A stretch of DNA of 64,000 bases from Thermoplasmata archaeon (GTDB lineage Archaea; Thermoplasmatota; E2; DHVEG-1): positions 5,384 to 69,383 of the forward strand of contig JAHWGJ010000004.1 of assembly GCA_020054475.1 (NCBI GenBank). The letters run 5' to 3'. Position numbers and translations under genes: made by a program. Shown one piece after another: positions 37,937 through 63,663 of the stretch (position 1 is its first letter; each line of letters starts with the position of its first letter). Below the pieces are notes generated by a model. The model worked only from the letters and a program-made list of their open reading frames with translations, did no database searches and was not told the DNA's origin.

Positions 37937-38067
37937 TCGATTTAACAATGTTTGATAGTAATAAATTTTTTATAATAATTATTTTTTAAAATATCTACTA
38001 AATCAAAAAGTTTATTATATTCTATTATATTTTAAATTTCAATTTTGGTGGAAAGAGGAGAAAAAAA

Positions 38068-39705: not shown

Positions 39706-39869
39706 GGATGATAACGTCATCCTTTTCTCTTTCTTATTTATTAAAATTAAATTAATAAATATTGTTTAAAATATTGTATAAATAAAAGGATAAAATATTA
39801 AAATAATATCTACAACGAAATTTAAATTGGAATTAATTCAACATTACTTATAATTTAAATGGAGATAAT

Positions 39870-40892
39870 ATGAAAACATGGGAATACATAGTAAGAAGAT
39901 TGCTATTACTTATCCCTGTTTTGATAGGAGTAACAATTATTACATTTGTAATATCTCATGTTATACCTGCCGATCCAGCTATAGCTTTTGCTGGAGGGCC
40001 AAAAGCTCAACCTGAAACCATAGAAAGAATAAGAGAAGAACTACATTTAAATGAACCGTTATTGGTTCAATATTTCTACTATTTAAATGATTTACTTCAT
40101 TTAAACTTTGGAAAATCATATTTAGAAAGTAGACCAGTCCTTGAAAGTATAACACAATACTTTCCAGCAACTTTTGAATTAACAATTTTTGCTATGCTTA
40201 TTTCTGTACCTTTAGGAATTCTGGGTGGAATTATTTCTGCAATAAGAAGAAATAAACTTTCAGATCATATAACTAGAATAATTGCAATATTAGGTTATTC
40301 AATGCCAATTTTTTGGCTAGCACTTATGCTTCAATACCTATTAGCATATCAATTTCCAATTTTACCTTTAGAGGGAAGACTATCAATAGGTCTTATTGCA
40401 CCACAATCCATTACAGGTTTATATGTGATAGATAGCATTTTAACAGGCAATATAAATACTTTATCTGCATCTTTATATCATCTTATTTTACCTTCTTTCA
40501 CACTTGGTTTTGCTACAATGGCTTTACTTCTAAGGATGACAAGATCAAGTATGCTTGAAGTAATGGGTATGGATTATGTTAGAACTGCTAGAGCAAAAGG
40601 TCTATCAGAAAGAGTAGTAATAATGAAACATGCACTCAGAAATGCTTTAATTCCAACAATAACAGTTTCAGGTCTTCAATTCGGAGCATTACTTGGAGGT
40701 GCGGTTCTTACCGAATCAATTTTTAATTGGCCAGGTATGGGCAGATTTGCCGCAAATGCTGTAATGGGACTTGATTTCAATTCTGTAATGGGCTTTACAA
40801 TTATTGTTGCAATAATTTATGTTATAGCAAATCTAATTGTTGATTTATTATATGCAGTTATCGACCCAAGAGTCAAATTAGGAGGAGAATGA
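39870..40892 (+). CDS. ABC transporter permease (DppB-like paralog)
   Basis: RTARAKGLSERVVIMKHALRNA loop. Confidence 0.85.
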   Translation: MKTWEYIVRRLLLLIPVLIGVTIITFVISHVIPADPAIAFAGGPKAQPETIERIREELHLNEPLLVQYFYYLNDLLHLNFGKSYLESRPVLESITQYFPATFELTIFAMLISVPLGILGGIISAIRRNKLSDHITRIIAILGYSMPIFWLALMLQYLLAYQFPILPLEGRLSIGLIAPQSITGLYVIDSILTGNINTLSASLYHLILPSFTLGFATMALLLRMTRSSMLEVMGMDYVRTARAKGLSERVVIMKHALRNALIPTITVSGLQFGALLGGAVLTESIFNWPGMGRFAANAVMGLDFNSVMGFTIIVAIIYVIANLIVDLLYAVIDPRVKLGGE

Positions 40893-40962
40893 TATATTTA
40901 AGATAAAAAAAATAGATGAATTTCTTAAAAAAAATGAATCAAGAATTAAAGATCTAAAATAT

Positions 40963-41835
40963 ATGCTTCATCTTTTTAGACGAAGTTTATTATCAATGAT
41001 AGGTCTTATTCTTATTCTATTCATCATATTTATTGCAATTTTTGCTCCGTATTTAGCTATACAACATCCAACTTATGTTGAAGTTTCAACCGAACAAGGT
41101 ACAAGACGAATTGAAGAAAGATGGGATATCAATTTTCAAGATAAATTTATTCCACCAAATTCAGAGCACTATTTTGGCACTGATGATTTTGGAAGGGATA
41201 TATATAGCATGGTAATTTATGGAACTCAGATATCATTGAAAATATGTTTAATGGTAGTATTTTCTGCAACAATAATCGGAATTATCTTAGGAGGAATTGC
41301 TGGATATTTCGGCGGTAAAATTGATGAAATACTAATGAGAGTAACAGATGTTTTTTTGTCTATACCTTATCTAATTTTAGCAATAGCTGTAGCAGCTGCA
41401 TTAGGTAGAAGTATAGAAAATATAATGATGGCATTAGTATTAGTTTGGTGGCCTCAATATGCTCGTTTATTAAGAGGACAAGTACTTTCAATCAGAGAAA
41501 ATCAATATGTAGAAGCAGCTCGTAGTATAGGGGCAAATAATTGGAGAATTTTATTCAGACATGTAATTCCAAACTCATTTGCACCATTATTAGTTCAAAT
41601 AACATTAGATTTAGGAGCCGTTTTACTTGTAGCAGCAGGATTAAGTTTCATAGGTCTAGGTGCCCCACCGGGAACTGCTGAATGGGGATTAATGATATCC
41701 TCCGGGAGAATGCATATGTTCCATTCATGGTGGTATGCAACTTTTCCAGGATTGGCAATTGTAATAACTGTTTTAGGTTTTAACTTATTAGGAGATGGAA
41801 TAAGAGACATAACAGATCCAAAATTAAGAAGGTGA
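40963..41835 (+). CDS. ABC transporter permease (DppC-like paralog)
   Basis: EAARSIGANNWRILFRHVIPN loop. Confidence 0.85.
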   Translation: MLHLFRRSLLSMIGLILILFIIFIAIFAPYLAIQHPTYVEVSTEQGTRRIEERWDINFQDKFIPPNSEHYFGTDDFGRDIYSMVIYGTQISLKICLMVVFSATIIGIILGGIAGYFGGKIDEILMRVTDVFLSIPYLILAIAVAAALGRSIENIMMALVLVWWPQYARLLRGQVLSIRENQYVEAARSIGANNWRILFRHVIPNSFAPLLVQITLDLGAVLLVAAGLSFIGLGAPPGTAEWGLMISSGRMHMFHSWWYATFPGLAIVITVLGFNLLGDGIRDITDPKLRR

Positions 41836-41839
41836 TTAA

Positions 41840-42910
41840 ACGAAGGAAAAACCATTAATATCAATAAAAAATCTTAAAACATATTTTTACACCTATGAAG
41901 GAGTAGTTAAAGCATTAGAGGATACAAATTTTGAAATATATAATGGAGAAACCTTTGGATTAATTGGGGAAACAGGATGCGGAAAAAGTGTAACAGCTTT
42001 GTCTGTTATGAGATTAATTCCCGACCCACCTGGAAAAATTATTGATGGTGAAATAAAATTCAAAGATGAAGACTTAATAAAAAAAACTGATTTAGAGTTG
42101 CAAAATATTAGAGGAAATGAAATATCAATGATATTTCAGGAACCCATGACAGCATTAAATCCTGTATTTAAAATCGGAGACCAAATTGCAGAAGTAATCA
42201 TTCTTCATGAATCAAACCCTAAATTAAATAATAAAAATTACAGGTTTTATAATAAAAGAAAAATTAGAAAGAAAATGGAAAAACAAGCATTTGAAAAAGC
42301 AATTGAAGCATTGAAAATGGTAAATATTCCGGATGCAGAAAAAGTTGCAAATCAATATCCACATGAATGTAGTGGAGGAATGCGACAAAGAGCTATGATT
42401 GCAATGATGCTTGCTTGTGATCCAGATCTATTGATTGCTGATGAACCAACAACTGCTCTTGATGTAACAGTTCAGGCACAAATATTAGCTTTAATGAAGG
42501 ACCTTCAAAAACGAAAAGGAACAGCGATCTGGTTAATAACACATAATTTGGGAATAATTGCTGAAATGTGTGATCGAGTAGGAGTAATGTATGCTGGATA
42601 CATTGTTGAAATGGGTTCAACCGAATTAATATTTGATAACCCTGATCATCCATATACAAGAGGATTAATAGGTTCTATACCAAAAATTACAGAAGATATT
42701 GATGAATTAGAGATTATTCCAGGTAATGTCCCTAATTTAATTGAACCACCATCAGGATGTAGATTTCATCCAAGATGTAAATTTTGCAAACAAATTTGTA
42801 AAGAAAAACCACCCGAATTAATTGAAGTTGAAAAAAACCATTATGTTGCTTGCCATAGATATAAAGAAGTAAAATATTCTGAGCTAGTAGATTTTCTAAA
42901 AAAAAAATAG
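41840..42910 (+). CDS. ABC transporter ATP-binding protein (DppD-like paralog). No canonical start codon upstream of the Walker A motif.
   Basis: Open frame from 41840, after TAA at 41837-39. It encodes KPLISIKNLKTYFYTYEGVV...GETGCGKS. The first ATG (41999) lies after the P-loop. Confidence 0.6.
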   Translation, partial: TKEKPLISIKNLKTYFYTYEGVVKALEDTNFEIYNGETFGLIGETGCGKSVTALSVMRLIPDPPGKIIDGEIKFKDEDLIKKTDLELQNIRGNEISMIFQEPMTALNPVFKIGDQIAEVIILHESNPKLNNKNYRFYNKRKIRKKMEKQAFEKAIEALKMVNIPDAEKVANQYPHECSGGMRQRAMIAMMLACDPDLLIADEPTTALDVTVQAQILALMKDLQKRKGTAIWLITHNLGIIAEMCDRVGVMYAGYIVEMGSTELIFDNPDHPYTRGLIGSIPKITEDIDELEIIPGNVPNLIEPPSGCRFHPRCKFCKQICKEKPPELIEVEKNHYVACHRYKEVKYSELVDFLKKK

Positions 42911-42920
42911 TGGTAAAAAG

Positions 42921-43901
42921 ATGGAAAAAGATCAAATAATTAAAGCAAAAAACATCAAAGAATACTTTCCAATAAGAAAAGGTATATTTTCAACTGTAAA
43001 AGAGTATGTTAAAGCAGTTGATAATGTAAATTTTTATATAAAAAAAGGAGAAACTTTTGGTCTTGTAGGAGAGTCAGGATGCGGGAAAACAACATTGGGT
43101 AGGACTTTAATACAATTAATTCCACCGACTTCTGGAACTGTTTGTTTTATGGGTAAAAATCTTTCAGAAATATCAAAATCAGAATTAAGAAAACTAAGAT
43201 TACACATGCAAATTGTTTTCCAAGACCCGTCATCCTCGTTAAACCCAAGAATGACAGTTAAACAAATTATAGGTGAACCACTAAAAATAAATAAAAAAAT
43301 CAAAAATGAAGAAATAAATAAAAAAGTATTATTATTATTAAAAACAGTTGGATTAGATGAACAACACATGTATCGTTTTCCGCATGAATTTAGTGGAGGA
43401 CAAAAACAAAGAATAGGTGTTGCAAGAGCTCTTGCTTTAAATCCAGATTTTATAGTATTAGATGAACCAACATCAGCTTTAGATGTATCTGTTCAAGCAA
43501 AAATACTAAATCTGTTTAAAGATTTACAAAAAAAATTCAATTTAACATATTTATTTATAACTCATGATTTAAGTGTTATAAAATACATAAGCGATAGAGT
43601 AGCAGTAATGTATGCTGGTAAAATAGTCGAATTATCAACCACAAAAGAATTATTTAAAAAACAACTTCATCCATATTCAATTGCTCTACTATGTTGTATA
43701 CCTATTCCAGATCCGAAAATAAAAAAAGAATTTATTGTAATAAAAGGTGAAGTACCTAGCCTAATTAATCCTCCGCCAGGTTGTAAATTTCATCCAAGAT
43801 GTCCCAAAAGAATTTCAATATGTAAAAAAATTGAACCTGAATTAATTGAAATAAAAAAAGAACATTTTGTAGCATGTCACTTATATCAAAAAAAAGTATG
43901 A
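42921..43901 (+). CDS. ABC transporter ATP-binding protein (DppF-like paralog)
   Basis: GESGCGKT, FSGGQKQR, FIVLDEPTSALD. Confidence 0.85.
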   Translation: MEKDQIIKAKNIKEYFPIRKGIFSTVKEYVKAVDNVNFYIKKGETFGLVGESGCGKTTLGRTLIQLIPPTSGTVCFMGKNLSEISKSELRKLRLHMQIVFQDPSSSLNPRMTVKQIIGEPLKINKKIKNEEINKKVLLLLKTVGLDEQHMYRFPHEFSGGQKQRIGVARALALNPDFIVLDEPTSALDVSVQAKILNLFKDLQKKFNLTYLFITHDLSVIKYISDRVAVMYAGKIVELSTTKELFKKQLHPYSIALLCCIPIPDPKIKKEFIVIKGEVPSLINPPPGCKFHPRCPKRISICKKIEPELIEIKKEHFVACHLYQKKV

Positions 43902-46789: not shown

Positions 46790-48124
46790 ATGGAAGATGA
46801 TCTAAATATATTGGGGGTTATACCTTCAGATAGAAAAAAATTAGAAAACATGGGAATTACAAAAATTCCACAAATAGCAATGATGTCTGTTAATTCTCTT
46901 GGGATGGGAAATAGTAAAGGGAACATGCTCATACAAAGAGCTAGAAATATAATTGCAAATGATAATATCGCGGATATTGATATTATAGATGATGATCATA
47001 TTACTGTTAAAGTAAAAAGAATAGATAGAGCAATTATAAAATCAGTATTAAACGCATTAGATATTTATTCCGCTAAATGGGGAAATGCTGCATTAAAAAC
47101 TGAAGGGAATATCTTAAAAATTTCAAGAAATTCTCAAGCCTTTGATAAAATTATATCAAAAGCAAAAACATTATCAGAAATTATTGAAATTAAAAAAATT
47201 GAAGAAAGAGAAAAAATTGGAATATATTTACCAGATGAAGAACTAATTGAATTTGCAAAAAAAAGAGGTTTTAAAGGTTTTTGGAAAAACGTTTTTCAAG
47301 AAATTCATGGTAATGACATAATGAAAAAGGTAATTTCATCAAGCATGTTCTCGACTTTTAGGGATCCAATTCACTCATTAATAATAGGCGAGCCAGGTAG
47401 CAGCAAAACAATGGCAAAGGAAATAATAAGTGAACAATTTGATGATATAACTAATATTGGTGCAAACACTACTAGATCTGGTTTAGTCTGTAACTTAGGA
47501 ACTGGCGATTTAGGGGCCTTATCACACTCAAATAATAAATTAGTATTAGTTGATGAATTTGATAAAATTCCAGAAGAAGATATTGAATATTGCTATGAAT
47601 TATTATCTAATGGGAAGTGTAGTGTTCATTCTGCTAAAATTCATCAAAATATTGAAAGTGAATTTATTATGATAGCTTTTGCAAATCCAAAATCAAAAGT
47701 ATTCCGTAAAAACGCAATTTTAGATATAGGGTTATCGCCTTTATTAGTTAGTAGATGCGCATTAATTGTTAGAGTAAAAAATATATCAAAAAGCGACAGA
47801 CTAAACTTATTTGAAAAAAAATTTTATGGTGCTGGAGAAATTGAAGAAAAACATGAATATTATAATCAATGGATGCGATTATCTAGAACGTATAATCCAG
47901 AAATAATAGCATCTGAAAAAATAGTAAAAAAATATATAAATAATATGAGTGAAATTGTTGAAAAATATTATTCAACAAACCTCCGAAGAGATCTAAGAAT
48001 GGCGGACTATATAAGAAGAATACCATTATCAATTGCTCGTTCATCTTTTTCATCTGTAAATAATGATATAATTGAAGAAGCAGGAAATATTATTGAAGAT
48101 TCAATTAATACATGGAACGAATAA
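46790..48124 (+). CDS. Mini-MCM: MCM-type AAA+ ATPase core with an N-terminal helix-hairpin-helix region. Lacks the MCM N-terminal zinc/OB domains.
   Basis: Walker A IIGEPGSSKT, Walker B LVDEFDKI, sensor-1 IAFANPKSK, Arg-finger-like LLVSRCALIV, and a lid R-rich helix RRDLRMADYIRRIPLSIARS. N-terminus LGVIPSDRKKLENMGITKIPQIAMMS is HhH-like. Confidence 0.6.
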   Translation: MEDDLNILGVIPSDRKKLENMGITKIPQIAMMSVNSLGMGNSKGNMLIQRARNIIANDNIADIDIIDDDHITVKVKRIDRAIIKSVLNALDIYSAKWGNAALKTEGNILKISRNSQAFDKIISKAKTLSEIIEIKKIEEREKIGIYLPDEELIEFAKKRGFKGFWKNVFQEIHGNDIMKKVISSSMFSTFRDPIHSLIIGEPGSSKTMAKEIISEQFDDITNIGANTTRSGLVCNLGTGDLGALSHSNNKLVLVDEFDKIPEEDIEYCYELLSNGKCSVHSAKIHQNIESEFIMIAFANPKSKVFRKNAILDIGLSPLLVSRCALIVRVKNISKSDRLNLFEKKFYGAGEIEEKHEYYNQWMRLSRTYNPEIIASEKIVKKYINNMSEIVEKYYSTNLRRDLRMADYIRRIPLSIARSSFSSVNNDIIEEAGNIIEDSINTWNE

Positions 48125-51451: not shown

Positions 51452-52195
51452 TTATTTTTCACCAATTATAATTAATTTTTTAGTTAAATCATCTAAAGGA
51501 AGATCAGTAGTAACAAGAGGGATATCTTCCCTTTCAGCTAATTTAACAGCAAGTTGGTCAACAGCTCCGGGTTTATGATATACTACTATTGTAGGTTTAA
51601 CTGGATGCACCCGAACAGCAATCATGGGACTTCGTCCATATCGTATGCCCGTAAATATTAGCGCTCTTTCAGGGGACCAACCATAGAGATTTGCATAATC
51701 AATTGGGGTAATATTTTCAATTATTTTAATACTATCAACAAGAGTAAAACCCTTTACTTTTTTCTTGAAGCCAATTTTTCCAGAAGTTAAAATATTCCCA
51801 TTTATATTATTAATAAAATTTTCTACTGTAACTGCATATGGATATTCCATAATTTCAATAATTCCATCATGTGTCGTAACCATTGAATCATATTGATGTA
51901 TTATTTTTCCTCCAAGGTTTTCATCGATTTTAATAAACCCTTCGATTATTTTTTTAACAGTTTGAATTCCCGGAGATTTTCTTCTACCTGATTCATAGTC
52001 ACTTATTACGCTAGGTGATAAATTTAAATAAGAAGCAAGCTCGGTTTGACTTATTCCAAAAATATTCCTCCATTTTCTAATAGTTTTTCCGGGTTTAGGG
52101 CTAAGAGTTATTTCGCCAGCAATTTTTTCTGATAAAATATCTTTTACATCCATCTTATTTCTCCATAGGTTTAAATTTATATCCATAATGTTCAA
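51452..52195 (-). CDS. XRE-family HTH transcriptional regulator with a C-terminal uncharacterised domain
   Basis: ISQTELASYLNLSPSVISDYESGRR is an HTH_3-type helix-turn-helix. Divergent from the integrase gene. Confidence 0.5.
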   Translation of the reverse strand: MNIMDINLNLWRNKMDVKDILSEKIAGEITLSPKPGKTIRKWRNIFGISQTELASYLNLSPSVISDYESGRRKSPGIQTVKKIIEGFIKIDENLGGKIIHQYDSMVTTHDGIIEIMEYPYAVTVENFINNINGNILTSGKIGFKKKVKGFTLVDSIKIIENITPIDYANLYGWSPERALIFTGIRYGRSPMIAVRVHPVKPTIVVYHKPGAVDQLAVKLAEREDIPLVTTDLPLDDLTKKLIIIGEK

Positions 52196-52238
52196 AGTGG
52201 GAATATATTAATATAATACTTTTTCTATAACATATATT

Positions 52239-53633
52239 GTGGTTCATATGGTTACTACTCCTTATGATGTCGATAGATATATCGTCAATATGTTAAATAA
52301 TTTTCGTAATAAATCGCATAAAAAAGATGCTGAAGAATACCTATTTATTAGAGAAAGAATAGACAAAGTAAACAACTATACTAGACGAAATGATGTACAA
52401 GCTCTTTTATCCCTTGATTTTTTCCTAAAAGGTAAATCCTACGAAAAAGCAACACAAGATGATATACTTGCCTTTGAACAATATCTGGAAAAAGAATATG
52501 TAAGTCCTGGTAAAAAAGAAAGATACGAAAAAACAATAAAAGCAGGGAATGAAGCAATAAGACCAAAGGTTGGCCTTGACTCTGGATCAGTAGAACAATA
52601 TGAAGCACATATCAAAAGATTCTATAAATATCTATCAAATAAAAATGAATATAAGAAAGGGAAAAGATTTCAGAAAAATATTCCTTATCCGAATAGTGTT
52701 TCATGGATTTCTGCAAGTTCTCAAAATAGTAAAGAATTTCCAATTGACAAACTATTGAAAGAAGAAGAACTTCTTAAACTCCTAAATATGTGTGATAATA
52801 CAAGGGATAAAGCCATGATCTCTGCTGGATTTTATGATGCAGGATTGAGGATAGGGGAATTAATTTCATTAAATATACGAAGCGTAGGTTTTGATAAATT
52901 AGGTGGATATTTTATTTTGCCAAAAAAGGGAGAAAATCTTAAAACAGGCGTGAGGCGAATTAGATTATTTATTATGCCAAGTTCAACTAAATATCTCAAG
53001 GATTTTATTAATAATCATCCATTCAAAAAATATGAGGATGCACCATTATTTTTCACCCAGAATTATTCAACATTTAATAAGATAATCAATAAAATTAATA
53101 ATAATACTTTTAAAAAGGATGATTTTGAGGAAGTAAGACTATCAAGACCAGGCATTGAAAACAAGATTAAAAAATATTGTAATCTTGCAGGAATCTCAGT
53201 TCTTACCCCGCATCAATTAAGACATAATTCTGCAACTCTTTCTTGTAAAGCAGGATTTAATGAAGCACAAATGAGGTTGCGATATGGATGGAGTAAAACA
53301 TCAAAGATGCCGAGTAGATATACTCATCTTGTATCTGCTGATCTTGATGAAAAAATAAAACAGATTACTGGTTTTAAAGAACCTGATAAACCATTGAAGA
53401 GTAAACTTGAGAGTATAATCTGTTGGAATTGTAATGATGAGAATGTACCGACTAATAAGTTCTGTTCAATGTGTGGGAGCAATCTTAATCCCAAAAAAGA
53501 AGAAATTACTCCAACTGCTGCAGAAACTGGAATTGCATTACAAAAAAGCATGAATCAAGATGAAATGTATCAACTAATGTTTAAGAAATTACAGGATATG
53601 GAAAAAGAACTTAAAAAGCTAAAAAATAAATAA
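52239..53633 (+). CDS. Tyrosine recombinase / phage-type integrase with a C-terminal zinc-ribbon tail
   Basis: Catalytic-box residues: LRIGELISL (Arg), HQLRHNSATL (HxxR), SKMPSRYTHL (Tyr). C-terminal CWNC...CSMCG. Confidence 0.7.
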   Translation: MVHMVTTPYDVDRYIVNMLNNFRNKSHKKDAEEYLFIRERIDKVNNYTRRNDVQALLSLDFFLKGKSYEKATQDDILAFEQYLEKEYVSPGKKERYEKTIKAGNEAIRPKVGLDSGSVEQYEAHIKRFYKYLSNKNEYKKGKRFQKNIPYPNSVSWISASSQNSKEFPIDKLLKEEELLKLLNMCDNTRDKAMISAGFYDAGLRIGELISLNIRSVGFDKLGGYFILPKKGENLKTGVRRIRLFIMPSSTKYLKDFINNHPFKKYEDAPLFFTQNYSTFNKIINKINNNTFKKDDFEEVRLSRPGIENKIKKYCNLAGISVLTPHQLRHNSATLSCKAGFNEAQMRLRYGWSKTSKMPSRYTHLVSADLDEKIKQITGFKEPDKPLKSKLESIICWNCNDENVPTNKFCSMCGSNLNPKKEEITPTAAETGIALQKSMNQDEMYQLMFKKLQDMEKELKKLKNK

Positions 53634-54917: not shown

Positions 54918-55463
54918 TTTAATAAATTTGGAATATAAAATAATAAGGAGAGAGGGGAGAAGATAGAAAAACCCTATTCGTCTCAAGATTAGGATGGGCT
55001 AGGCTAAAAGAAATATCCGTTTTATAACTCCCCACTCACTTAATATATTTGTAACTAATGTTATTTATAGTTTAACATTTTTTAGATGTAACATCTATAA
55101 ATAAAGAAGGAAAGAGAGGGATTCGTATATTCAAAAACGGAGGTAAAAAGAGTTTTAGGTAATATACATAAAAAGGAATCCATCTCTCATTAATATATTG
55201 TTTATCATTGTTATTATATAAAATAAACGATTATATATTCGTCAATAAGCGATATTTATTCATTTTTAGATGTTTAGATTAAGGATATTAGAATGTGTTA
55301 AAGGAAAGATGGAAGAGAATAGAGGTATAAATGAGAGATGGGATGGAAGGGAAGAGGTGGAATAAAAAATATTAATCCTAAATCCTCTATTCTCTGATAT
55401 TATACTCTGTAATTTGGCTATATAAAGATTATTTGACAAGTATTATCAAAAGATTTATAACAT

Positions 55464-55862: not shown

Positions 55863-55948
55863 TGAAGTATATTAATAGTCAGAAAATGTTTGGGATATAC
55901 CAAATGATTTATTAGATATGTTTTTGTTACAAAATCTGGGAGTATATC
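55863..55948 (+). repeat. Promoter/leader module type B, copy 1 (TGAAGTATAT ... TTTATTAGATATG ... AAATCTGGGAGT)
   Basis: Seen in sequence. Shared with 56362..56440, 57611..57656 and 57798..57889. Confidence 0.45.
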
Positions 55949-56361: not shown

Positions 56362-56440
56362 TGAAGTATATCTTATTAAAATCTGTTAAGCATAGTTTTA
56401 TTAGATATGGTTTAGTTACAAAATCTGGGAGTTTGCGTGT
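56362..56440 (+). repeat. Promoter/leader module type B, copy 2
   Basis: gaagtatatcttattaaaatctgttaagcatagttttattagatatggtttagttacaaaatctgggagt. Confidence 0.45.
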
Positions 56441-56773
56441 ATGGAAAATAATTATAAAATAGGTTTAATTTTGATTGTTGTTGGCTATATATCTATTATA
56501 TCTGCATTAATTATTTCGTATGCTAGTTTTTTATCTATCCGTGATTATTCAAATTATGATTTATTTAATAATTTACATACTATATTCTTATTTGTTTTTA
56601 TAGCTGGATTAATATTAATTCCAATAGGACTTATTTTACAATCTTTAAAAATTAAAATTAAGAAATTCTCTAAAAAACCAGTTGAAATGGCAAGAAAAAT
56701 ACTATATGAAAGATATGCTAAAGGAGAGATTTCTAAGAAAGAATTTCAAGATATGAAAAAAGATTTAGAATGA
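56441..56773 (+). CDS. Two-TM membrane protein with C-terminal SHOCT domain
   Basis: C-terminus ILYERYAKGEISKKEFQDMKKDLE matches the SHOCT consensus (L..RYA.GEI..EE....K). Confidence 0.5.
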   Translation: MENNYKIGLILIVVGYISIISALIISYASFLSIRDYSNYDLFNNLHTIFLFVFIAGLILIPIGLILQSLKIKIKKFSKKPVEMARKILYERYAKGEISKKEFQDMKKDLE

Positions 56774-56796
56774 TATGTTGAAAAGAAGTAGAACTA

Positions 56797-57090
56797 ATGA
56801 AAAATAATTACATTACTGTTGGAGTGACTATTATTCAAGTATGTGGTGTATTAGCAGTTGTATTCTATGCTTTGTTGTTTGAATCAATATTAACTTATGC
56901 TATGATTCTAGGTGTGATTATAGGTATTATTATATTGATTATTGGAAAAACAGAAAGTGAGAAAGAAGTTATTAAGAGTAATCCATCAAAACAAGATAAT
57001 AAAGCATTACAAATCTTAAAAGAGAGATATGCAAAAGGTGAGATAACAAAGAGAGAATTTAAGGATATGAAGAAGGATGTAGAGGGATAG
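56797..57090 (+). CDS. Two-TM membrane protein with C-terminal SHOCT domain (paralog)
   Basis: ILKERYAKGEITKREFKDMKKDVEG. Confidence 0.5.
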   Translation: MKNNYITVGVTIIQVCGVLAVVFYALLFESILTYAMILGVIIGIIILIIGKTESEKEVIKSNPSKQDNKALQILKERYAKGEITKREFKDMKKDVEG

Positions 57091-57093
57091 AAT

Positions 57094-57513
57094 ATGGGTT
57101 TAATGAAATATTTAGGTGGTATTGGACTTTACTTGTTAGGTGGATTTTTAATATTTATTGGTATAGTATCTTCAATTGTTGCTATTGAAATGTGTGCAAT
57201 TTTAGTTGTTGTTGGTATTATTATTTTATTATCAGGTGTTTTTTATACAAGAACTTCAACTTATGACGTTCCAAGACATATAAAAATTGTAAATAAGAAA
57301 AAGAAAAGAGATGATGATATAAGATGCACAAATTGTGGAAGAGTAATACCTATAGATGCTAAAATTTGTCCATATTGTAGTAAGAAATTAATTGAGGATG
57401 TTAAAGAAATAAATGATAGCAACTCTCCAATTGAAATTTTAAAGAATAGATTTGCAAAGGGTGAACTTACTGAAGAAGAGTATGAAAGAATGAAGAAGAA
57501 ATTAGAAGGATAG
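57094..57513 (+). CDS. Two-TM membrane protein with internal zinc ribbon and C-terminal SHOCT domain (paralog)
   Basis: CTNCGRV...CPYCSKK, then ILKNRFAKGELTEEEYERMKKKLEG. Confidence 0.5.
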   Translation: MGLMKYLGGIGLYLLGGFLIFIGIVSSIVAIEMCAILVVVGIIILLSGVFYTRTSTYDVPRHIKIVNKKKKRDDDIRCTNCGRVIPIDAKICPYCSKKLIEDVKEINDSNSPIEILKNRFAKGELTEEEYERMKKKLEG

Positions 57514-57516: not shown

Positions 57517-57609
57517 ATGAATAAACGAAGATGGAAGAAATGTGGTAAATTGTTTATGCCTACAGACATTTATGACTATACTTGTGAAATCTGCTCTATG
57601 GAAAGTTAA
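57517..57609 (+). CDS. Micro zinc-ribbon ORF (30 aa)
   Basis: MNKRRWKKCGKLF...YTCEICSMES. Start overlaps the stop of the upstream gene. Confidence 0.2.
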   Translation: MNKRRWKKCGKLFMPTDIYDYTCEICSMES

Positions 57610-57610
57610 G

Positions 57611-57656
57611 CATAAATTTATTAGATATGTTAAGTTATTTCAATTGGAGTTACAGA
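57611..57656 (+). repeat. Promoter/leader module type B, copy 3 (partial)
   Basis: cataaatttattagatatgttaagttatttcaattggagttacagaATG. Confidence 0.35.
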
Positions 57657-57797: not shown

Positions 57798-57889
57798 TGA
57801 AAGAGATATCTTATTAACATCTGTTAAGAAAACTTTTATTAGATATGTTTTAGCTACAATTACTAGATAATATTAGGGAGGTTATTAAA
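57798..57889 (+). repeat. Promoter/leader module type B, copy 4
   Basis: tgaaagagatatcttattaacatctgttaagaaaacttttattagatatgttttagctacaa...tagggaggttattaaaATG. Confidence 0.45.
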
Positions 57890-58159
57890 ATGATAAGAAA
57901 AAATGTTGGTTTTTTAATTATGTTCATTGGTGGTCTTGGCTTAGGATTACTATTAGGAAATGAGTTTTCAAGTTCTTATATAACAATAGTTGGAGCTATA
58001 TTATTATTAATTACTATAGGTTCAATAATAATATTGTCTTATAACAAAAAGGATAAGGATTTAAAACCTGGTTCAAAAGCATACGATGAAATTGGAGATC
58101 TTACTGAACTATCTTATGAACTCAGAGATAGAAGTAAAGGTAAGGATAAGGTGAAATGA
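57890..58159 (+). CDS. Small two-TM membrane protein with K/D-rich tail ending GKDKVK
   Basis: ORF. The tail motif recurs in micro-ORFs 58330..58380 and 60809..60856. Confidence 0.4.
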   Translation: MIRKNVGFLIMFIGGLGLGLLLGNEFSSSYITIVGAILLLITIGSIIILSYNKKDKDLKPGSKAYDEIGDLTELSYELRDRSKGKDKVK

Positions 58160-58287
58160 AAGGAATTAAAGAAAAGAATTTTTGTGATAAATGTAAAACA
58201 ATGACTTGGCATGAATATAGAGGAACAACAAAAAAAAGAAAAGGACAAACAGAGTGTCTTGAGTGTCATAATATAAGAATTTTATAA
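58156..58287 (+). CDS. Small zinc-ribbon protein (43 aa). ATG overlaps the upstream TGA (GTGAAATGAAAGG).
   Basis: NFCDKCKTMTWHEY...CLECHN. Paralog of 60589..60786 (NYCDNCKTNTWHRY...CQVCKH). Confidence 0.4.
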   Translation: MKGIKEKNFCDKCKTMTWHEYRGTTKKRKGQTECLECHNIRIL

Positions 58288-58370
58288 AAAAAAGATAAAG
58301 ATATTGGTTTGATTAATGAGGAAATTGAGATGAGTTATTATAAACCTGATAAAAAGAAAGGTGTGGGTAA

Positions 58371-58598
58371 GGTGAAATAATCGTTTTAAAATTTAAGAAG
58401 AGAAAAAAGATTAAGTTAAAATCAAAATATAAAACAAAAATCGCTTATTGGATTTGTAGTGATTGCCATTGTGAATTTACAGACTCAGAGGATTATAAAA
58501 AATTGACAAAAAAGATAACATGTCCTTATTGTGGTAGAAAAAATATGACACATTTTAAAGAAGGAAAATATTCTGCCGATGTTATAAATAACATCTAA
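58371..58598 (+). CDS. Zinc-ribbon ORF (CSDCHC...CPYCGRKN) with no canonical start codon. Open stop-to-stop.
   Basis: Frame opens after TAA 58368-70. It overlaps the tail of micro-ORF MSYYKPDKKKGVGKVK (58330..58380). Confidence 0.25.
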   Translation, partial: GEIIVLKFKKRKKIKLKSKYKTKIAYWICSDCHCEFTDSEDYKKLTKKITCPYCGRKNMTHFKEGKYSADVINNI

Positions 58599-58620
58599 AA
58601 AATTACATTTAAATTTTTTT

Positions 58621-58712
58621 AAATCCCCCCTGTTGAAAAATAGTGTTATAATGCCTTAAAACCTGTTTTTCTCATGTTACACCCATGTTTTATAGGAGAA
58701 ACAACCTTATAA
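58621..58712 (+). repeat. Conserved intergenic element type A, copy 1 (AAATCCCCCCTGTTGAAAAATAGTGTTATAATGCC ... hairpin ... AGGAGAAACAACCTTA)
   Basis: Seen in sequence. Four copies share a TGTTATAATGC box, a T-run, and a CTCCTGTTAC...AGGAGAAA hairpin. Confidence 0.55.
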
Positions 58713-59036
58713 ACATTATAATAATAAAATTTATATCTTTTAATTTTATATAATTGTTGGGAGATAATATAGAGGGATTTATATTGAAGTTTATTAAATT
58801 GTCATTTATTATTAGTATACTCTTTTTTAGTTTGTTTATATCATTTTCAATAATATATCCAAAATCCAATATTGCATCTGCTGTAGATCCATATACAATT
58901 TGATTCAATTGTAATATTAGAAATTGAAGATTCAAGTGTTTTAGATATACCCATTCATCCTTTAAAAGGTGTTAAAAACATAGATATTAAGATTAAATAT
59001 TTTAATACAATTCCAAAAGAAATTAAGGACAGTTTT

Positions 59037-59798
59037 ATGATTAAAGGATTACTTTTTGGATTTAATAAATTTTCATTTATAACACCAGTTAATTTAACCA
59101 TAGAACGTACTAGCATACCAAATTGGTGTAATGTATCAATAATACCGCCAATTATAATTTTTGATGCATTTGATGATGGAGAAAATCTTGAACGTAGAGC
59201 TACTCTGCAGGTAGCTGTTAATAAAAAATCAACAGCTTTATTCCCATTTACATTGAGCATAATTGCTAAAGCAGATACACCAGACCCAAACATTAAACCT
59301 CCTCCTATTGCTACATTACCAATTACAATAACCCCGGGGTATGTTCCATTAATCTCCACTGATCCAGGTGCAGCAATTAAAAAAACTATACCGGGTAAAC
59401 CTGTTAATTGGAATATAAGAATATCTAACAATGGAAATGGTGAAGCTTTAGTTAAAGCTCGAATAATTAACTATCTTGAAGGATGGATTGTATCAGTAAA
59501 CCCTCAGATATTAATTCCATCACTAGCAGATGGAAAAAATAATGAAAATAACTTGTCATTAACAGCATTACCTCCTTTAAATATGGGTTATTATAATGAA
59601 AATGTAAAGATTGAAATTGAATTAACACCAGAATTTTCATCTCCAGGGGCTGGATCTTTGATTAATTCAATGAAAGGTGAACCAATGTATCTTACACTAT
59701 TAGTACAACTGAGAGGTTTCTCATTACCAGGATTTGAATTTATATTCATTATAATTGGAATATTGATTATTATAATTGTTAGAAAAAATAAGATATGA
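59037..59798 (+). CDS. Surface protein with canonical PGF-CTERM archaeosortase sorting signal
   Basis: C-terminus RGFSLPGFEFIFIIIGILIIIIVRKNKI is PGF, then a TM helix, then a basic tail. Pro/Thr/Ile-rich body. N-terminal signal not evident. Overlaps the minus-strand ORF 58955..59431. Confidence 0.45.
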   Translation: MIKGLLFGFNKFSFITPVNLTIERTSIPNWCNVSIIPPIIIFDAFDDGENLERRATLQVAVNKKSTALFPFTLSIIAKADTPDPNIKPPPIATLPITITPGYVPLISTDPGAAIKKTIPGKPVNWNIRISNNGNGEALVKARIINYLEGWIVSVNPQILIPSLADGKNNENNLSLTALPPLNMGYYNENVKIEIELTPEFSSPGAGSLINSMKGEPMYLTLLVQLRGFSLPGFEFIFIIIGILIIIIVRKNKI

Positions 59799-59853
59799 AA
59801 AAATTTATAATTGCAAATAAAAAAGAAAAATAAGTATTTTTGGAGATAATCAA

Positions 59854-59982
59854 ATGGATGAAACAAGAAAATGTCCGTTATGCAATCAGAACTTATTTGA
59901 AAATATTGTATGGAGTAATCAATTAGTCAGATACTGCCACGATTGTCAGAAAATCTTTATTAATAATAACGAGTATTTTTAA
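59854..59982 (+). CDS. Small zinc-ribbon protein (42 aa)
   Basis: CPLCNQ...CHDCQK. Confidence 0.3.
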   Translation: MDETRKCPLCNQNLFENIVWSNQLVRYCHDCQKIFINNNEYF

Positions 59983-60029
59983 GGTGATAATATAGAAATT
60001 TGTTGAACTGGAATTAAATAAATAATTGT

Positions 60030-60128
60030 TTTTCCCTCCTTTTGGAATTAGTGTTATAATACCTTAAAACCTGTTTTATCTCCTGTTACACCCCCATCTA
60101 CCAAGGAGAAACAACCTTTTAAAGCAAA
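60030..60128 (+). repeat. Conserved intergenic element type A, copy 2
   Basis: tttttccctccttttggaattagtgttataataccttaaaacctgttttatctcctgttacacccccatctaccaaggagaaacaaccttttaaagcaa. Confidence 0.55.
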
Positions 60129-60153
60129 TTCATATTATTAAGTATTGGTAAAG

Positions 60154-60273
60154 ATGGAAGATAAGAAACCTATGATCTGTAATTATTGTAAAAAAATAAT
60201 ATATGCAGATCATGAATGTTTTGAAGAACATGAAGGTAAATACTATCATGCAGACTGCAAGGACAAAATTTAA
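60154..60273 (+). CDS. Small zinc-finger protein (39 aa)
   Basis: CNYCKK...HECFEEHEGKYYHADC. Confidence 0.3.
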   Translation: MEDKKPMICNYCKKIIYADHECFEEHEGKYYHADCKDKI

Positions 60274-60319
60274 CAATTGAAATTGAATAATTTAATAATT
60301 GCAATAGAGGATTAAATAG

Positions 60320-60580
60320 ATGATTTGGCAGGATTATGCAATAACAATAATCGTTTACATGTTCGTTGCAGTAACTATACCACAATTAATAGATGTAATT
60401 AAAGGAAGAACGTCGTTGAATCTTTTCACTGCTGGAGCAACATCTCTTGGTAACTATGGTCTTGCATATATATTCTTCACTTTAGATTTATGGTTATCAG
60501 TAACATCAGCAATTCTTATTGCAACTCTTTGGATGTTATTGTTTTTATTTTCAATGAGAAACAAAAAAAAGGGAAAATAG
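60320..60580 (+). CDS. Small two-TM membrane protein
   Basis: ORF, hydrophobic. Confidence 0.4.
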   Translation: MIWQDYAITIIVYMFVAVTIPQLIDVIKGRTSLNLFTAGATSLGNYGLAYIFFTLDLWLSVTSAILIATLWMLLFLFSMRNKKKGK

Positions 60581-60588
60581 GATTATAA

Positions 60589-60786
60589 ATGATTAATAAA
60601 ATGTTGGAAGAAAATATTGAAGGAATAAAGGAACGCAACTATTGTGATAACTGCAAAACAAATACTTGGCACAGATATTTTGAATCAAATGTAATTGGAG
60701 ATTCATATAATCAATGTCAAGTATGTAAACACAAACGATTCCAAAAAGATTTTATTGGAATTCGTGATAGAAAATTTAAACAATGA
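60589..60786 (+). CDS. Small zinc-ribbon protein (paralog of 58156..58287)
   Basis: NYCDNCKTNTWHRY...CQVCKHKRF. Confidence 0.4.
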   Translation: MINKMLEENIEGIKERNYCDNCKTNTWHRYFESNVIGDSYNQCQVCKHKRFQKDFIGIRDRKFKQ

Positions 60787-60855
60787 TGTGATTGGTGAGA
60801 AAACCGAGATGAGTTATTACGCACCAGATAAGAAAGATAAGGATAAGGTGAAATA

Positions 60856-61155
60856 ATGAAGGTTAGATATTATCTTATTGGATTGATACTAATAATATTA
60901 GGTTTCCTATCTTTTGTATCGATAGCTGTATTAAATGAATATTCCTGGATGAATATTACATATCATATTATTCTAACAATATCTGGTTTTCTATTGATAG
61001 CTCTTGGTATAATCAGTATGATTATATTTCTTAGACCGAAGAATAAAGCAAAACCATCTCAAGAAGAACAGGACGTTGATCTTGCTGATAAGCTTGAGGA
61101 TTCAGCAGTTTATCATGCTCAACATAAAAAGAAAGTTAAGGATAAGAGGGAATAA
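60856..61155 (+). CDS. Small two-TM membrane protein with K-rich tail. ATG overlaps the TAA of micro-ORF 60809..60856.
   Basis: ORF, hydrophobic N-terminal half. Confidence 0.4.
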   Translation: MKVRYYLIGLILIILGFLSFVSIAVLNEYSWMNITYHIILTISGFLLIALGIISMIIFLRPKNKAKPSQEEQDVDLADKLEDSAVYHAQHKKKVKDKRE

Positions 61156-61157
61156 AA

Positions 61158-61448
61158 TTGTTATTTGAAAAGAAGGAAAACAAAGACAAGGAAGAAAAAA
61201 TTAATCCTGTTTATCATCCTTATGTTAACAAACCTTATTATCATGATAGTATATTTTTCAATGGTAAATATTATCATGGTACTATTAAGGAGGGGATTGC
61301 TGAATTATGTGATGATCCTATCAATCCATGTAGACTTTCTATGCTTGTAAAAGTTAAAACACAGAGGATAAAAACTATTTATGACGGCGGGGATACTGAG
61401 ATAATTGTTATTGAAGGGGAAATATTAAAAGATTATACAAAAATGTAA
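61158..61448 (+). CDS. Small hypothetical protein (His/Tyr-rich N-terminus)
   Basis: ORF only. Confidence 0.3.
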   Translation: MLFEKKENKDKEEKINPVYHPYVNKPYYHDSIFFNGKYYHGTIKEGIAELCDDPINPCRLSMLVKVKTQRIKTIYDGGDTEIIVIEGEILKDYTKM

Positions 61449-61545
61449 TTTCCCTTATGTTGGAAATTGTGTTATAATGCTTTAAAAGGTACTTTTTACT
61501 CCTGTTAACCCCTAGGTCTATAGGAGAAATAATACTTTTAATTAC
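61447..61545 (+). repeat. Conserved intergenic element type A, copy 3
   Basis: aatttcccttatgttggaaattgtgttataatgctttaaaaggtactttttactcctgttaacccctaggtctataggagaaataatacttttaattac. Confidence 0.55.
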
Positions 61546-61589
61546 CCTTTGTCTTTATTAAAATATTATTTATTTCATCAACATTAATT

Positions 61590-61778
61590 ATGAAATCTAG
61601 AGAAACCTGTATTAAATGTGGTCGTAACAAATCATCTGATAATGTGTCTTTGTTTTGTGTATCATGTAAAAACAAGATCATCAACTATTGTTGGAATTAT
61701 CAAAATAAACTACAAGATAGTTATTTAAATCGTAAGAGTCCCACAACAGGTCCAATTTTTTTTAAATTATCATCCTGA
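61590..61778 (+). CDS. Small zinc-ribbon protein
   Basis: CIKCGRNK...CVSCKNK. The 3' end overlaps the convergent eRF1-like gene. Confidence 0.3.
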   Translation: MKSRETCIKCGRNKSSDNVSLFCVSCKNKIINYCWNYQNKLQDSYLNRKSPTTGPIFFKLSS

Positions 61779-62788
61779 CTAAATTCAACAATCGCATCAG
61801 TTCGTTCCGCGATTTTAACGATCTCTTCGACAATATCAACTTCGGATGTTTTCTTTCCACAGGCCGGACAGATAGATAAGATACCTTCTTCAATGAGTTG
61901 ACAGCGTTCGCAAATCCAACCTTTTTGTTTAACATCTTTTTCTACAAGCAATGCCTCCACTTGTCCATTTTTCACTGCTGTTAATGTATTTTTAAGACCA
62001 TATACTGCCAATCCGTTTTTCAAAATCTCAATTCGAATCAGTTCAAGTAACCGTTGATGTTCCTGTTTACCTTTTTCTTTCATTATTTCATGTGTTTCAT
62101 TGAACAATCCATATTCATCATCCATATCAACATTCACTTCTGCAATTACGCCTTTTTGAAGCATTATTGGTAACATGTCACGAAAGTGTTTCTTCGTTTC
62201 CCCTGGGCCTGCAAGAAGAATGTTATCTCGTGCAATTTTTTGAAGAGCCTCAACAATTTCTGTTAAAAAGGTATGTATATTTCCTTTTCTTAATCGTTGG
62301 AATCGTGCTTGGGACATACCACCTTTTTTATGCTTATTCATAATATCTGCAGAGAGATCTTTTTCGGTATTTAGTTCTCCGCAGGAAAAAGAAAATATTT
62401 TTGCATGATTAGAATTCAGCAACACAAGAGTATAAACCTGCCATTCATCAGCTAACTCAGCTATCTGATGAATATAAGGAGATACGTCAACAACAAGAGA
62501 ATTTTTTACGTTCACGGGAAATGTGATAGCCTTGAAAAAATTATTTTTATCAGATGCAAAAATTGCGTGATTTGATCCCTTGTTTTTCTTCAAATATGTC
62601 TTTATCTCATTGATTGTTTTTAAGAAATTTTTTAATTCATCATATTTTAAAATGTGTTGAATCACTTTTTCTCTGTGTTGAATAAAATGTTCATCTTTTC
62701 CATCAAAATATAGACTAACAAATGTTTTCAAATTATCTTTATCATAAATTTCAATAAGTCCAGGTAATGATTTATCACATGTCTTCAT
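61721..62788 (-). CDS. eRF1/aRF1-like release-factor paralog: divergent N-domain, GGQ loop replaced by [16 protein letters not shown], C-domain with a CxxC-x12-CxxC zinc ribbon
   Basis: Central and C-terminal blocks align by eye to eRF1. [29 protein letters not shown] matches [43 protein letters not shown] matches [32 protein letters not shown] matches [29 protein letters not shown] matches GIGGILRYRVDF. No NIKS or YxCxxxF motif in the N-domain. Confidence 0.55.
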   Translation of the reverse strand: [355 protein letters not shown]

Positions 62789-63209
62789 AAGAAAAAAATA
62801 TAAACATATTCTATTTAAAACATTTCTAATTATCTAATGGGAACTGATGAAAAATATAGGTTGTGTTTATAGTAGGGAGGAAAAGAGGGGGCAAAAACCC
62901 AAAAAGCACCTCAAAACTTATCTTCAAGACAGGTTTTAAATATGAAAACTTGTGAAACATTTTAATTCCGAGATAAATCAATATTTTACCAGTAAACTGG
63001 TGTTCAAATCCCTTCCCCTGCATAATTTTTTAAAAAATAATTGGATATATATACTGATTTACTCAAAACTAGATTACTATTAAAATTGAGAGAAATATCC
63101 CCCTAGATTAAATTATATAAAACTCGGCAAAAACGTTATTATAATAAATAAAATTTATAATCTCTTGTAATATACAAATATTGGGGGATGTATTAGGAGG
63201 GAATAAAGA

Positions 63210-63404
63210 ATGGATAAAAAAAATATTGATTATAAGGCTATTTATTCGTTAGGTATAATTTTTACGTTTAGTGGTATTCCAATAACAATTGCAACAAGAA
63301 ATCCAGCTTTTTTGGGATTAATGGCTTTTGGTATAATATTAATGCTAACTGGTTATGTAAATAGAGATAAATGGGAAGGTGCGATTAAAAAAAAAGGAAT
63401 TTGA
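63210..63404 (+). CDS. Small two-TM membrane protein
   Basis: ORF, hydrophobic. Confidence 0.3.
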   Translation: MDKKNIDYKAIYSLGIIFTFSGIPITIATRNPAFLGLMAFGIILMLTGYVNRDKWEGAIKKKGI

Positions 63405-63503
63405 GGAGATGAAAGAGGATTTTAAAAAGCAATATGAAAAAGAATTTGAGGAGATTAAAAAGGGTTTTAAAAAACAAAATAGAAAAAAAATTGAAAATAA
63501 CTG

Positions 63504-63600
63504 AAATCCCCCCTGTTGAAAATACTGTTATAATGCTTTAAAACCCTTTTTTTCTCCTGTTACCCTCTATTTACTAAGGAGAAATACTACTTTAAAGCAA
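63504..63600 (+). repeat. Conserved intergenic element type A, copy 4 (perfect 8-bp stem TTTCTCCT / AGGAGAAA)
   Basis: gaaatcccccctgttgaaaatactgttataatgctttaaaaccctttttttctcctgttaccctctatttactaaggagaaatactactttaaagcaa. Confidence 0.55.
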
Positions 63601-63663
63601 TAAAATTTATATCCCTTTATAATATACAATTATTTGGGAGTTACGTCAGGGAGGTAATATAAA

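Follow-up and report, generated by a model that had tools for sequence, protein, structure and literature searches.

What is the function of a short non-coding sequence that recurs between the genes of a variable archaeal island? This question is raised by a 64-kb stretch (hereafter the window) of contig JAHWGJ010000004.1 from a Thermoplasmata archaeon, an AT-rich member of the Thermoplasmatota with a GC content of about 27% throughout the window. A first-pass annotation had noticed four copies of a conserved non-coding element with a hairpin, lying like boundaries between gene groups, and had proposed that they represent a small-RNA family, a promoter with its leader, or recombination sites. 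On sequence alone, these three roles are not separable. The conserved family, its hairpin and its boundary-like placement are supported by our analysis, which indicates that the element most likely marks the point where one transcription unit ends and another begins, and that it is probably a regulatory junction cassette analogous to the promoter-early stem-loop (PeSL) cassettes of T4-like phages.

A repeat search of the window returned four co-oriented, non-coding copies of about 100 nt (family D7), at essentially the coordinates first reported. They are recovered by an nhmmer profile with E values of 1e-25 to 1e-27 and by a covariance model (CM):

58618-58717, + strand: copy 1 (nhmmer E 1.1e-25; CM 80.5 bits)
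60027-60131, + strand: copy 2 (nhmmer E 1.5e-27; CM 90 bits)
61444-61548, + strand: copy 3 (nhmmer E 2.1e-26; CM 82.7 bits)
63503-63602, + strand: copy 4 (nhmmer E 4.5e-27; CM 95.9 bits)

Pairwise identity among the copies is 72-81%, while their 100-nt flanks show background similarity, so the borders of the element are sharp. The profile, built on the four copies, detected no fifth copy on either strand of the 64 kb. The core box TGTTATAATGCYTTAAAA has four matches in the window at one mismatch or fewer, and eight at three or fewer where 1.7 are expected; the pattern CTCCT-N8-25-AGGAG has three, all in copies 2-4 (0.14 expected), copy 1 reading CTCAT. Every frame of every copy contains stops, indels separate the copies, and reading past the upstream stop codons revealed no conserved read-through peptide in the copies or in the relative described next. 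A fifth fragment that the first-pass annotation had placed at 63006-63030 matched neither the profile nor the CM, and turned out to be the pyrimidine-rich 3' arm of a separate inverted repeat (62866-63024).

A search of related sequence succeeded in a single case. The sole relative found, L019, lies on an ENA contig in another Thermoplasmatota island, the integrase of which is 59% identical to that of the window. This copy is full-length (65-67% identity; nhmmer E 9.5e-7 with the four-copy profile; CM 69 bits). Its start coincides with the stop codon of an Lrp/AsnC-type gene; it lies between convergent genes and points to the 3' end of the integrase gene. Its stem reads ATCCT/AGGAT in place of CTCCT/AGGAG: both sides have changed with the pair kept, which argues that it is pairing that is preserved and not likeness to a Shine-Dalgarno (SD) sequence. 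Across 199 kb, the covariance model R1 detected no additional copy. None was present in the remaining 58 kb of the window, in 11 kb of core genome that stems from the same sequencing run (L028), at the core-paralogue loci of a 343-aa protein (L027 and L028), at the locus of an orthologue of the aRF1-like gene (L029) or at the integrase-homologue loci L020-L025. The strict pattern GTTATAAT-N14-30-CTCMTGTTA-N8-24-AGGAGAAA gave one chance match each in the genome and metagenome contig collections (a Pelosinus metagenome-assembled genome and CETL01049932); it is too stringent for variants of the L019 type. Viral contigs yielded chance matches only, in two scans with patterns and one with the integrase profile, and blastn against plasmids and phages gave no match. 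The element is a real, sharply bounded and lineage-restricted non-coding family; with four copies and one relative, it is at present a well-defined candidate and not a discovery.

Read from 5' to 3', the element opens with the C-rich block AAATCCCYCCTGTTGRAAA and the near-invariant box TGTTATAATRCYTTAAAAC. A T-run follows (T5-T7, with TTTTAT instead in copy 2), then CTCCTGTTAC, a loop that is variable and 13-15 nt long, AGGAGAAAYAA and finally CTTTTAAAGCAA; on reading, the consensus first given for it is accurate. Its parts are distributed as follows:

58644-58662, + strand: copy 1, box TGTTATAATGCCTTAAAAC, with the T-run at 58666-58670 (sequence reading)
58668-58675 and 58694-58701, + strand: copy 1, hairpin arms TTTCTCAT and AGGAGAAA, with one A.G mismatch
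60052-60070, + strand: copy 2, box, with arms TATCTCCT at 60077-60084 and AGGAGAAA at 60104-60111
61470-61488, + strand: copy 3, box, with arms TTACTCCT at 61496-61503 and AGGAGAAA at 61522-61529
63526-63544, + strand: copy 4, box, followed by a T7 run and a perfect 8-bp hairpin, TTTCTCCT at 63551-63558 and AGGAGAAA at 63577-63584
63534-63542 and 63590-63598, + strand: copy 4, arms GCTTTAAAA and CTTTAAAGC of the outer stem

The predicted fold has two tiers, an inner stem (up to TTTCTCCT/AGGAGAAA) within an AT-rich outer stem (TTTAAAA/TTTTAAA), and the palindrome omits about 35 nt at the 5' end of the element. The outer AT stem and the inner CTCCT/AGGAG stem are predicted in copies 1, 3 and 4 and are weak in copy 2 and L019; an additional outer stem, AAAGGTA/TACTTTT, is particular to copy 3. 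The hairpin itself is predicted in all four copies, as had been claimed, and in three of them it is more stable than in shuffled sequences (z from -2.5 to -4.7), which copy 2 is not (z -1.1). For the 83-nt cores of copies 1-4 on the + strand, the z-scores were -2.7, -1.1, -2.5 and -4.7, and they ranged over fold runs from -2.7 to -3.0 for copy 1, -2.5 to -2.9 for copy 3 and -3.8 to -4.7 for copy 4. The minus strand has a similar folding energy and weaker z-scores. The strand signals conflict: G.U pairs of the outer stem favour minus, whereas the z-scores and the loop-closing G.U favour plus. What had been read as co-variation in length between copies 3 and 4 is merely a mismatch in the 5' arm, TTACTCCT versus TTTCTCCT facing the same AGGAGAAA.

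The position of the copies between genes was then compared. Each element starts 0-44 nt past the upstream stop codon and ends 3-17 nt ahead of a box resembling the archaeal transcription factor B recognition element and TATA box (BRE/TATA), from which the start site predicted suits the ORF that comes next. Copy 3 begins on the stop codon of the open reading frame (ORF) 61158-61448 and copy 4 on that of ORF 63379-63504; copy 1 is abutted by an in-frame TAA, and copy 2 starts 44 nt past a stop. A canonical AAAATTTATATC is found 17 nt after copy 1 and 6 nt after copy 4:

58726-58737, + strand: BRE/TATA AAAATTTATATC after copy 1, followed by a 5' untranslated region (UTR), the SD GAGGGA and a TTG start at 58784
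63602-63613, + strand: BRE/TATA AAAATTTATATC after copy 4, followed by a 5' UTR, the SD GGGAGG and an ATG at 63664

This sequence fits the promoter pattern upstream of many genes of the window; after copies 1 and 4, its predicted start site leads to a leader of 24-28 nt with a GGGAG-type SD. The TATA-like boxes located 3 nt after copy 2 and 8 nt after copy 3 are weaker than AAAATTTATATC. The start site predicted from the box after copy 3 falls at the ATG, giving a leaderless mRNA, and that predicted from the box after copy 2 falls just upstream of an internal ATG at 60172. The first-pass annotation had instead suggested a possible promoter inside the element (TGTTATAAT). The internal box TGTTATAATGC does show a moderate likeness to the promoters of the genome and fits the local pattern, AAAA-TTTATATA, in part; it is not needed as promoter of the downstream gene, since a BRE/TATA or TATA-like box sits between the element and the next gene. 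Copies 1 and 4 also have promoter and leader in common, over about 50 further nt (76% identity; D8) and thus about 150 nt in total, and the proteins encoded after them are unrelated. Sharing of element, promoter and leader ahead of unrelated proteins is characteristic of a regulatory cassette that is portable.

In none of the copies is there a start codon within 10 nt of AGGAG, the plausible next start being about 45-90 nt off. This agrees with the earlier view that the element is not a simple ribosome-binding site. The accompanying proposal that the hairpin sequesters an SD is not sustained, since no start codon follows AGGAG and L019 has AGGAT paired with ATCCT.

We tentatively interpret the element as a cis-regulatory junction of composite nature, in which a terminator or insulator is joined to the region upstream of the promoter that follows. 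It would act in cis on transcription. The transcript of the upstream unit would enter the element, where the oligo-T run and the hairpin would end or insulate it, and the conserved upstream half together with the hairpin would serve the next promoter as its upstream control region. A side effect would be that 100-nt patches of homology allow unrelated modules to be exchanged through homologous recombination, of which the unrelated genes behind the cassette shared by copies 1 and 4 would be indirect evidence. Termination, promoter control and recombination are what we infer from the positions, conservation and predicted structure of the copies. The interpretation is suggested by an element that runs in the direction of the genes, begins where a unit ends, carries a T-run and a hairpin and stops just before the next promoter. 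It is also suggested by co-conservation with a promoter before unrelated genes and by confinement to a variable island rich in orphan genes, in which a second repeat family (described below) likewise joins an inverted repeat, a TATA-like box and a leader. Also counted in favour of a junction are the sharp borders, the richness of the sense strand in C, a hairpin specific to the elements and more stable than shuffled sequence in three of the four copies, a distribution in which every copy found lies in an island, and the hypervariable neighbourhood.

Several observations weigh against a junction. Formal covariation is zero: in the MAFFT alignment of five sequences 82% of the cells pair, a double change is seen in none of the pairs and the level of the shuffle control is not surpassed, the one apparent compensatory change, that of the L019 stem, being seen by eye only. 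Copy 2 and the L019 copy fold no better than shuffled sequence. A canonical intrinsic terminator was rejected, because the T-run lies 5' of the hairpin with only T3-T4 after the stem, and a terminator scan lists no site at any copy. The near-invariant box of about 20 nt, TGTTATAATGCYTTAAAAC, is without a role in the junction model and looks more like a protein- or RNA-recognition sequence. The L019 copy is without a T-run, and downstream of it there is nothing to be promoted. Finally, the boxes after copies 2, 3 and L019 may be due to chance, as TATA-like strings are common at 27% GC. If the junction interpretation is nonetheless true, mobile islands of the Thermoplasmatota would organise their orphan genes by portable terminator/promoter cassettes, of a kind demonstrated to date in T4-like phages and suggested for a single halovirus. 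This would point to a convergent solution across domains for the expression and swapping of accessory genes, and annotators of poorly known archaea would gain a marker of where transcription units begin and end.

The composition of the element also bears on a different reading, that of a family of small non-coding RNAs (sRNAs), or of RNAs derived from 3' UTRs, with C/U-rich seeds resembling an anti-Shine-Dalgarno sequence. On the + strand, C amounts to 17-26% of the element versus 11.7% of the island, the + strand of which otherwise has more G than C. This strong asymmetry of C over G is accompanied by three C/U-rich patches in sense orientation (CCCYCCU, the CUCCU of the stem and a CCC(U)C within the loop), which would pair with the GGAGG or GGGAGG ribosome-binding sites of mRNAs from the island; the SDs of island genes are G-rich, and runs of C6 and G6-7 are rare in the window. 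The multi-copy sRNAs with UCCC motifs known in Firmicutes are the comparison for this reading. Conserved blocks flanking a variable loop and a stable fold in three of the four copies point in the same direction and, since it starts at the stop codon, the element would belong to the 3' UTR of the upstream mRNA. We consider an sRNA family rather unlikely, however. Rfam 15 has no match at the gathering score in the whole window, nor even at E up to 1 in the 53.6-64 kb region; no consistent promoter was found upstream of block A of the element and no consistent oligo-T terminator past the hairpin. Moreover, one C-rich patch is sequestered in the stem, support from covariation is nil, and the strand is undecided between the outer-stem G.U pairs (minus) and the z-scores (plus).

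The near-invariant 20-nt box and three phased YTGTTR motifs, CCTGTTGAAA, nnTGTTATAA and CCTGTTAC, would both be explained if the element were a DNA operator or an upstream activating region, through which an island-encoded DNA-binding protein co-regulates the units that follow. The short distance between the end of the element and the next BRE/TATA would suit such a site, as would the palindromic character kept in L019 despite an unstable RNA fold, and the gene that abuts the L019 element encodes an Lrp/AsnC-type regulator. The binder could conceivably, though improbably, be the HTH_3 regulator encoded beside the integrase, a zinc-ribbon protein or, as in L019, a member of Lrp/AsnC. Yet a strand asymmetry in composition is unexpected for a purely double-stranded site, the ORFs of the window island that were scanned include no Lrp/AsnC homologue, no binding protein was identified, and YTGTTR is short and frequent in AT-rich DNA. 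An operator is thus unlikely in our view.

Paralogous mini-modules are found at 57890-58380 and 60589-61155, each made of a zinc-ribbon protein (NFCDKCKT/NYCDNCKT), a tiny ORF ending in EMSYY(K/A)PDKK...KVK and a two-helix membrane protein; the gene order differs before copy 1 and before copy 3. Such modules (family D16, with the zinc-ribbon gene, the 'EMSYY.PDKK' micro-ORF and the membrane protein) before copies 1 and 3 could mean that the elements are functionless leftovers of segmental duplication, the 3' end of an ancestral gene and its spacer having been copied along with the modules; the absence of covariation would fit as well. This explanation is very doubtful: in conservation the 100-nt element equals or exceeds the best coding repeat (72% over 64 nt; D16) while its flanks are at background, a full-length relative of 65-67% identity persists beside the 59%-identical integrase amid unrelated flanks, and the hairpin arms of L019 have changed in a compensatory way.

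A last alternative concerns the recombinase gene that marks, on its left, the variable island in which the four copies are found:

52248-53633, + strand: tyrosine recombinase/integrase with a C-terminal zinc ribbon (Pfam Phage_integrase 6e-18)

About 5 kb of genes separate it from copy 1. Its best NCBIfam match is archaeal XerA (78.6 bits; cut-off 220), and it scores 26.4 bits against the integron integrase model TIGR02249 integrase_gron (cut-off 265). Its homologues are annotated as Thermoplasmatales or Thermoplasmatota. At 51452-53633 of the window, the zinc-ribbon integrase is paired with a divergent HTH_3 gene at 51452-52195, as in several Thermoplasmatota contigs; at these related loci, the integrase beside the same divergent HTH_3 gene is followed by genes for MCM, prim-pol/D5 or a plasmid replication protein. 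Locus L020 contains a perfect 20-nt direct repeat, TTAAATTTATATCCATAATA, at 9923-9942 and 15865-15884, one copy lying in the HTH/integrase intergenic region, in the promoter region of the HTH gene. The repeat flanks a 5.9-kb stretch encoding MCM, thereby marking an integrated element, and is a candidate att site; the integrase family appears, from this arrangement, to integrate next to the HTH gene. The same motif is present in the window at 52170-52189; no good second copy was found to the right of it within the window. The sequence available beyond the window is 304 nt (L026).

The elements could in principle be sites of site-specific recombination that bound mobile modules, an integron-like attC analogue served by the integrase. 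The defining features of attC sites, including those of archaeal integrons, are described by Ghaly et al. 2022 (PMC9668308). As in attC, the elements are direct repeats located 3' of co-oriented units and starting at the stop of the preceding ORF. Their predicted fold is an imperfect palindrome in which two paired tiers, weak in copy 2 and L019, go together with an unpaired spacer and a variable loop, and a tyrosine recombinase in the same orientation lies upstream. In addition, the gene content around the elements differs between near-identical strains, and in L019 the single copy follows the end of the homologous integrase gene at a distance of about 50 nt; in archaeal integrons, attI is reported just downstream of intI (PMC9668308). 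We nevertheless regard a recombination site as improbable. The R''/R' core pair of attC (RYYYAAC, GTTRRRY) was absent from both strands of the copies with about 30 nt of flank, and a regular-expression search of the island from 53.6 to 64 kb gave no candidate pair. The integrase is XerA-like and not of the IntI type, and its homologues head ordinary integrated plasmid-like elements, in one of which (L020) the flanking 20-nt repeat is another sequence. Furthermore, 5 kb of other genes lie between the integrase and copy 1, the supposed cassettes are units of 2-6 ORFs with promoters of their own, the 5' third of the element (about 35 nt) is outside the palindrome, the orientation to the integrase is reversed in L019, and the break points of same-sample assemblies do not fall at the elements. 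The first-pass annotation had raised recombination (cassette) sites; identity with integron attC sites was rejected, the core motifs being absent and the recombinase scoring 26 bits against a cut-off of 265. There is only a slim chance that a non-canonical archaeal cassette system exists here, in which the XerA-like zinc-ribbon recombinase would capture, excise and reshuffle multi-gene modules bounded by structured sites of about 100 nt, that is, an analogue of integrons arisen independently in mobile islands of the Thermoplasmatota. Should the element be an sRNA family or a recombination site instead of a junction, it would constitute a new class, being without match in Rfam or in the attC definition.

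Downstream of the integrase come a PKD-domain protein, a 500-nt non-coding stretch and many small ORFs on the + strand, which encode zinc ribbons, membrane proteins with a SHOCT domain, and orphans that belong to no Pfam or PHROG family. It is among these ORFs that the four copies are placed. No viral hallmark genes were found in the island. An aRF1-like gene 97% identical to that of the window (P0138) occurs on a 13-kb contig from another sample, and the adjacent ORFs of 96, 99, 253 and 89 aa have no relatives of at least 90% identity in the collection; judged from this comparison, the neighbourhood is hypervariable. Close variants of further neighbouring genes are P0262 and P0270, for ORFs of 65 and 86 aa, and P0273, for a 42-aa ORF on a JGI contig of 4.4 kb. 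Independent Logan contigs of run SRR26538807 are 100% identical to the window and break at 50194, 54850, 58176 and 63017-63046, and the window contains no repeat of at least 20 nt that would explain these breaks. The one at 63017-63046, where the inverted repeat that lies upstream of the aRF1-like gene ends, may mark a strain-variable junction.

Several genes of the window deserve mention in their own right. After copy 1, positions 58784-59798 hold a frameshifted copy of the 343-aa family, as a signal-peptide ORF at 58754-58903 followed by 59037-59798 in another frame. The frameshift is also present in an independent Logan contig. Intact core copies of this family adjoin a ribosomal-protein operon in relatives, the one from the same sample (L028) being 66% identical. 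The gene at 61721-62788 on the minus strand, previously called eRF1-like, is a member of baeRF family 10 or else aRF1-like, with a TIGR03676 score of 103 bits that falls short of the cut-off (235). Its Thermoplasmatota homologues number in the hundreds, at 50-97% identity, and its promoter is kept in L029 where its neighbours are wholly different from those in the window; going by these homologues, it is a lineage-wide release-factor paralogue and not specific to the island. Positions 56441-57513 encode three membrane proteins in succession, each with a SHOCT domain at its end (family D6); the third carries a zinc ribbon as well. To the left of the HTH gene, an MCM-like helicase ORF (46790-48124; Pfam MCM 1.9e-14) is followed by small orphan ORFs; this region may be a second integrated element, or a remnant of one, in tandem with the island. 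Further left, at 32372-43901, lie two tandem paralogous ABC-transporter operons about 5.9 kb apart (families D1-D5, D9 and D17); each opens with a lipoprotein-like substrate-binding gene, and by eye they look like oligopeptide transporters.

The island also contains other repeats. In the second family (D14/D18), an inverted repeat, a TATA-like box and a leader are combined as ATATCTTATTAAAA...TTTTATTAGATATG...GGGAG:

55890-55945: second family site
56368-56432: second family site
57806-57870: second family site
57600-57650: weak copy of the second family

The 13-bp inverted repeat is ATATCTTATTAAAA/TTTTATTAGATAT, its 3' arm being the TATA-like box, and the GGGAG SD lies about 10 nt before start codons. 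By its sequence, this family looks like a shared promoter/leader cassette of the island. Four long-range inverted-repeat units were also observed, the first three within 54920-55450:

54940-55045: inverted-repeat unit of about 100 nt
55100-55195: inverted-repeat unit of about 100 nt
55305-55405: inverted-repeat unit of about 100 nt
62866-63024: fourth inverted-repeat unit, about 160 nt, upstream of the aRF1-like gene

In all four, a purine-rich 5' arm pairs with a pyrimidine-rich 3' arm over 60-130 nt (z -1.6, -4.0, -3.3 and -1.2). They match nothing in Rfam and may represent structured RNAs or terminators. A portion of the fourth unit, ATGCAGG...GGGATTTGAA when read on the gene strand, is also found upstream of the L029 orthologue.

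How does the ~100-nt element compare with known systems? ARAGORN found no tRNA genes in the window, and a tRNA-derived attachment site was rejected on this basis. Box C/D and bulge-helix-bulge motifs were not seen on reading the element, and identity with an origin-recognition box (ORB) was dropped, the resemblance seen on reading being too weak. The element resembles repetitive extragenic palindromes and bacterial interspersed mosaic elements (REP/BIME) and miniature inverted-repeat transposable elements (MITEs) in being a short, partly palindromic, non-coding repeat at gene ends. It differs from them in having neither terminal inverted repeats (TIRs) nor target-site duplications (TSDs), in being present as four old copies in one island, and in having no gene for a RAYT or another transposase nearby. 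A repeat derived from a MITE or an insertion sequence was rejected, the ends AAATCCC... and ...TTTAAAGCAA not being inverted repeats and no consistent TSD being found; a recent origin of the MITE type does not agree with copies only 72-81% identical.

An archaeal parallel is the haloarchaeal myovirus HGTV-1, in which, according to the account given in PMC3950731, both a region resembling a TATA box and an inverted repeat precede most ORFs of the left arm (Sencilo et al. 2013) and were proposed to serve in regulation and shuffling. On this description, to which the comparison is confined, both motifs are archaeal and combine a TATA-like box with an inverted repeat between small ORFs of a mobile region. 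The HGTV-1 motif differs in belonging to a halovirus and in occurring in many copies, each preceding an ORF, whereas here four copies of about 100 nt each end a multi-gene unit in an island of a Thermoplasmatota chromosome.

Another comparison that bears on the junction interpretation is with the PeSL cassettes, in which a stem-loop and an early promoter are placed between the ORFans of hyperplastic regions in T4-like phages (Arbiol et al. 2010, PMC2839356; Comeau et al. 2014, PMC4122927). For PeSLs, terminator and promoter activities and the formation of mini-circles have been demonstrated, and the patches of homology that they supply serve the exchange of modules (PMC2839356, PMC4122927). 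The two are not homologous in sequence. The promoter is an archaeal BRE/TATA here and of the sigma-70 type in PeSLs, the stem is CTCCT/AGGAG here and polyG/polyC in PeSLs, and the additional conserved 5' half of about 50 nt is found only here. The host also differs, being here an integrated archaeal island without viral hallmark genes, and the activity of the element is here a predicted one. What the two have in common is the design: a short, conserved and repeated composite motif in which a stem-loop, here a predicted one, is joined to promoter-like sequences of the host type, intergenic and co-oriented with the genes of a variable region rich in small orphans, and linking genes that are themselves unrelated, as at copies 1 and 4.

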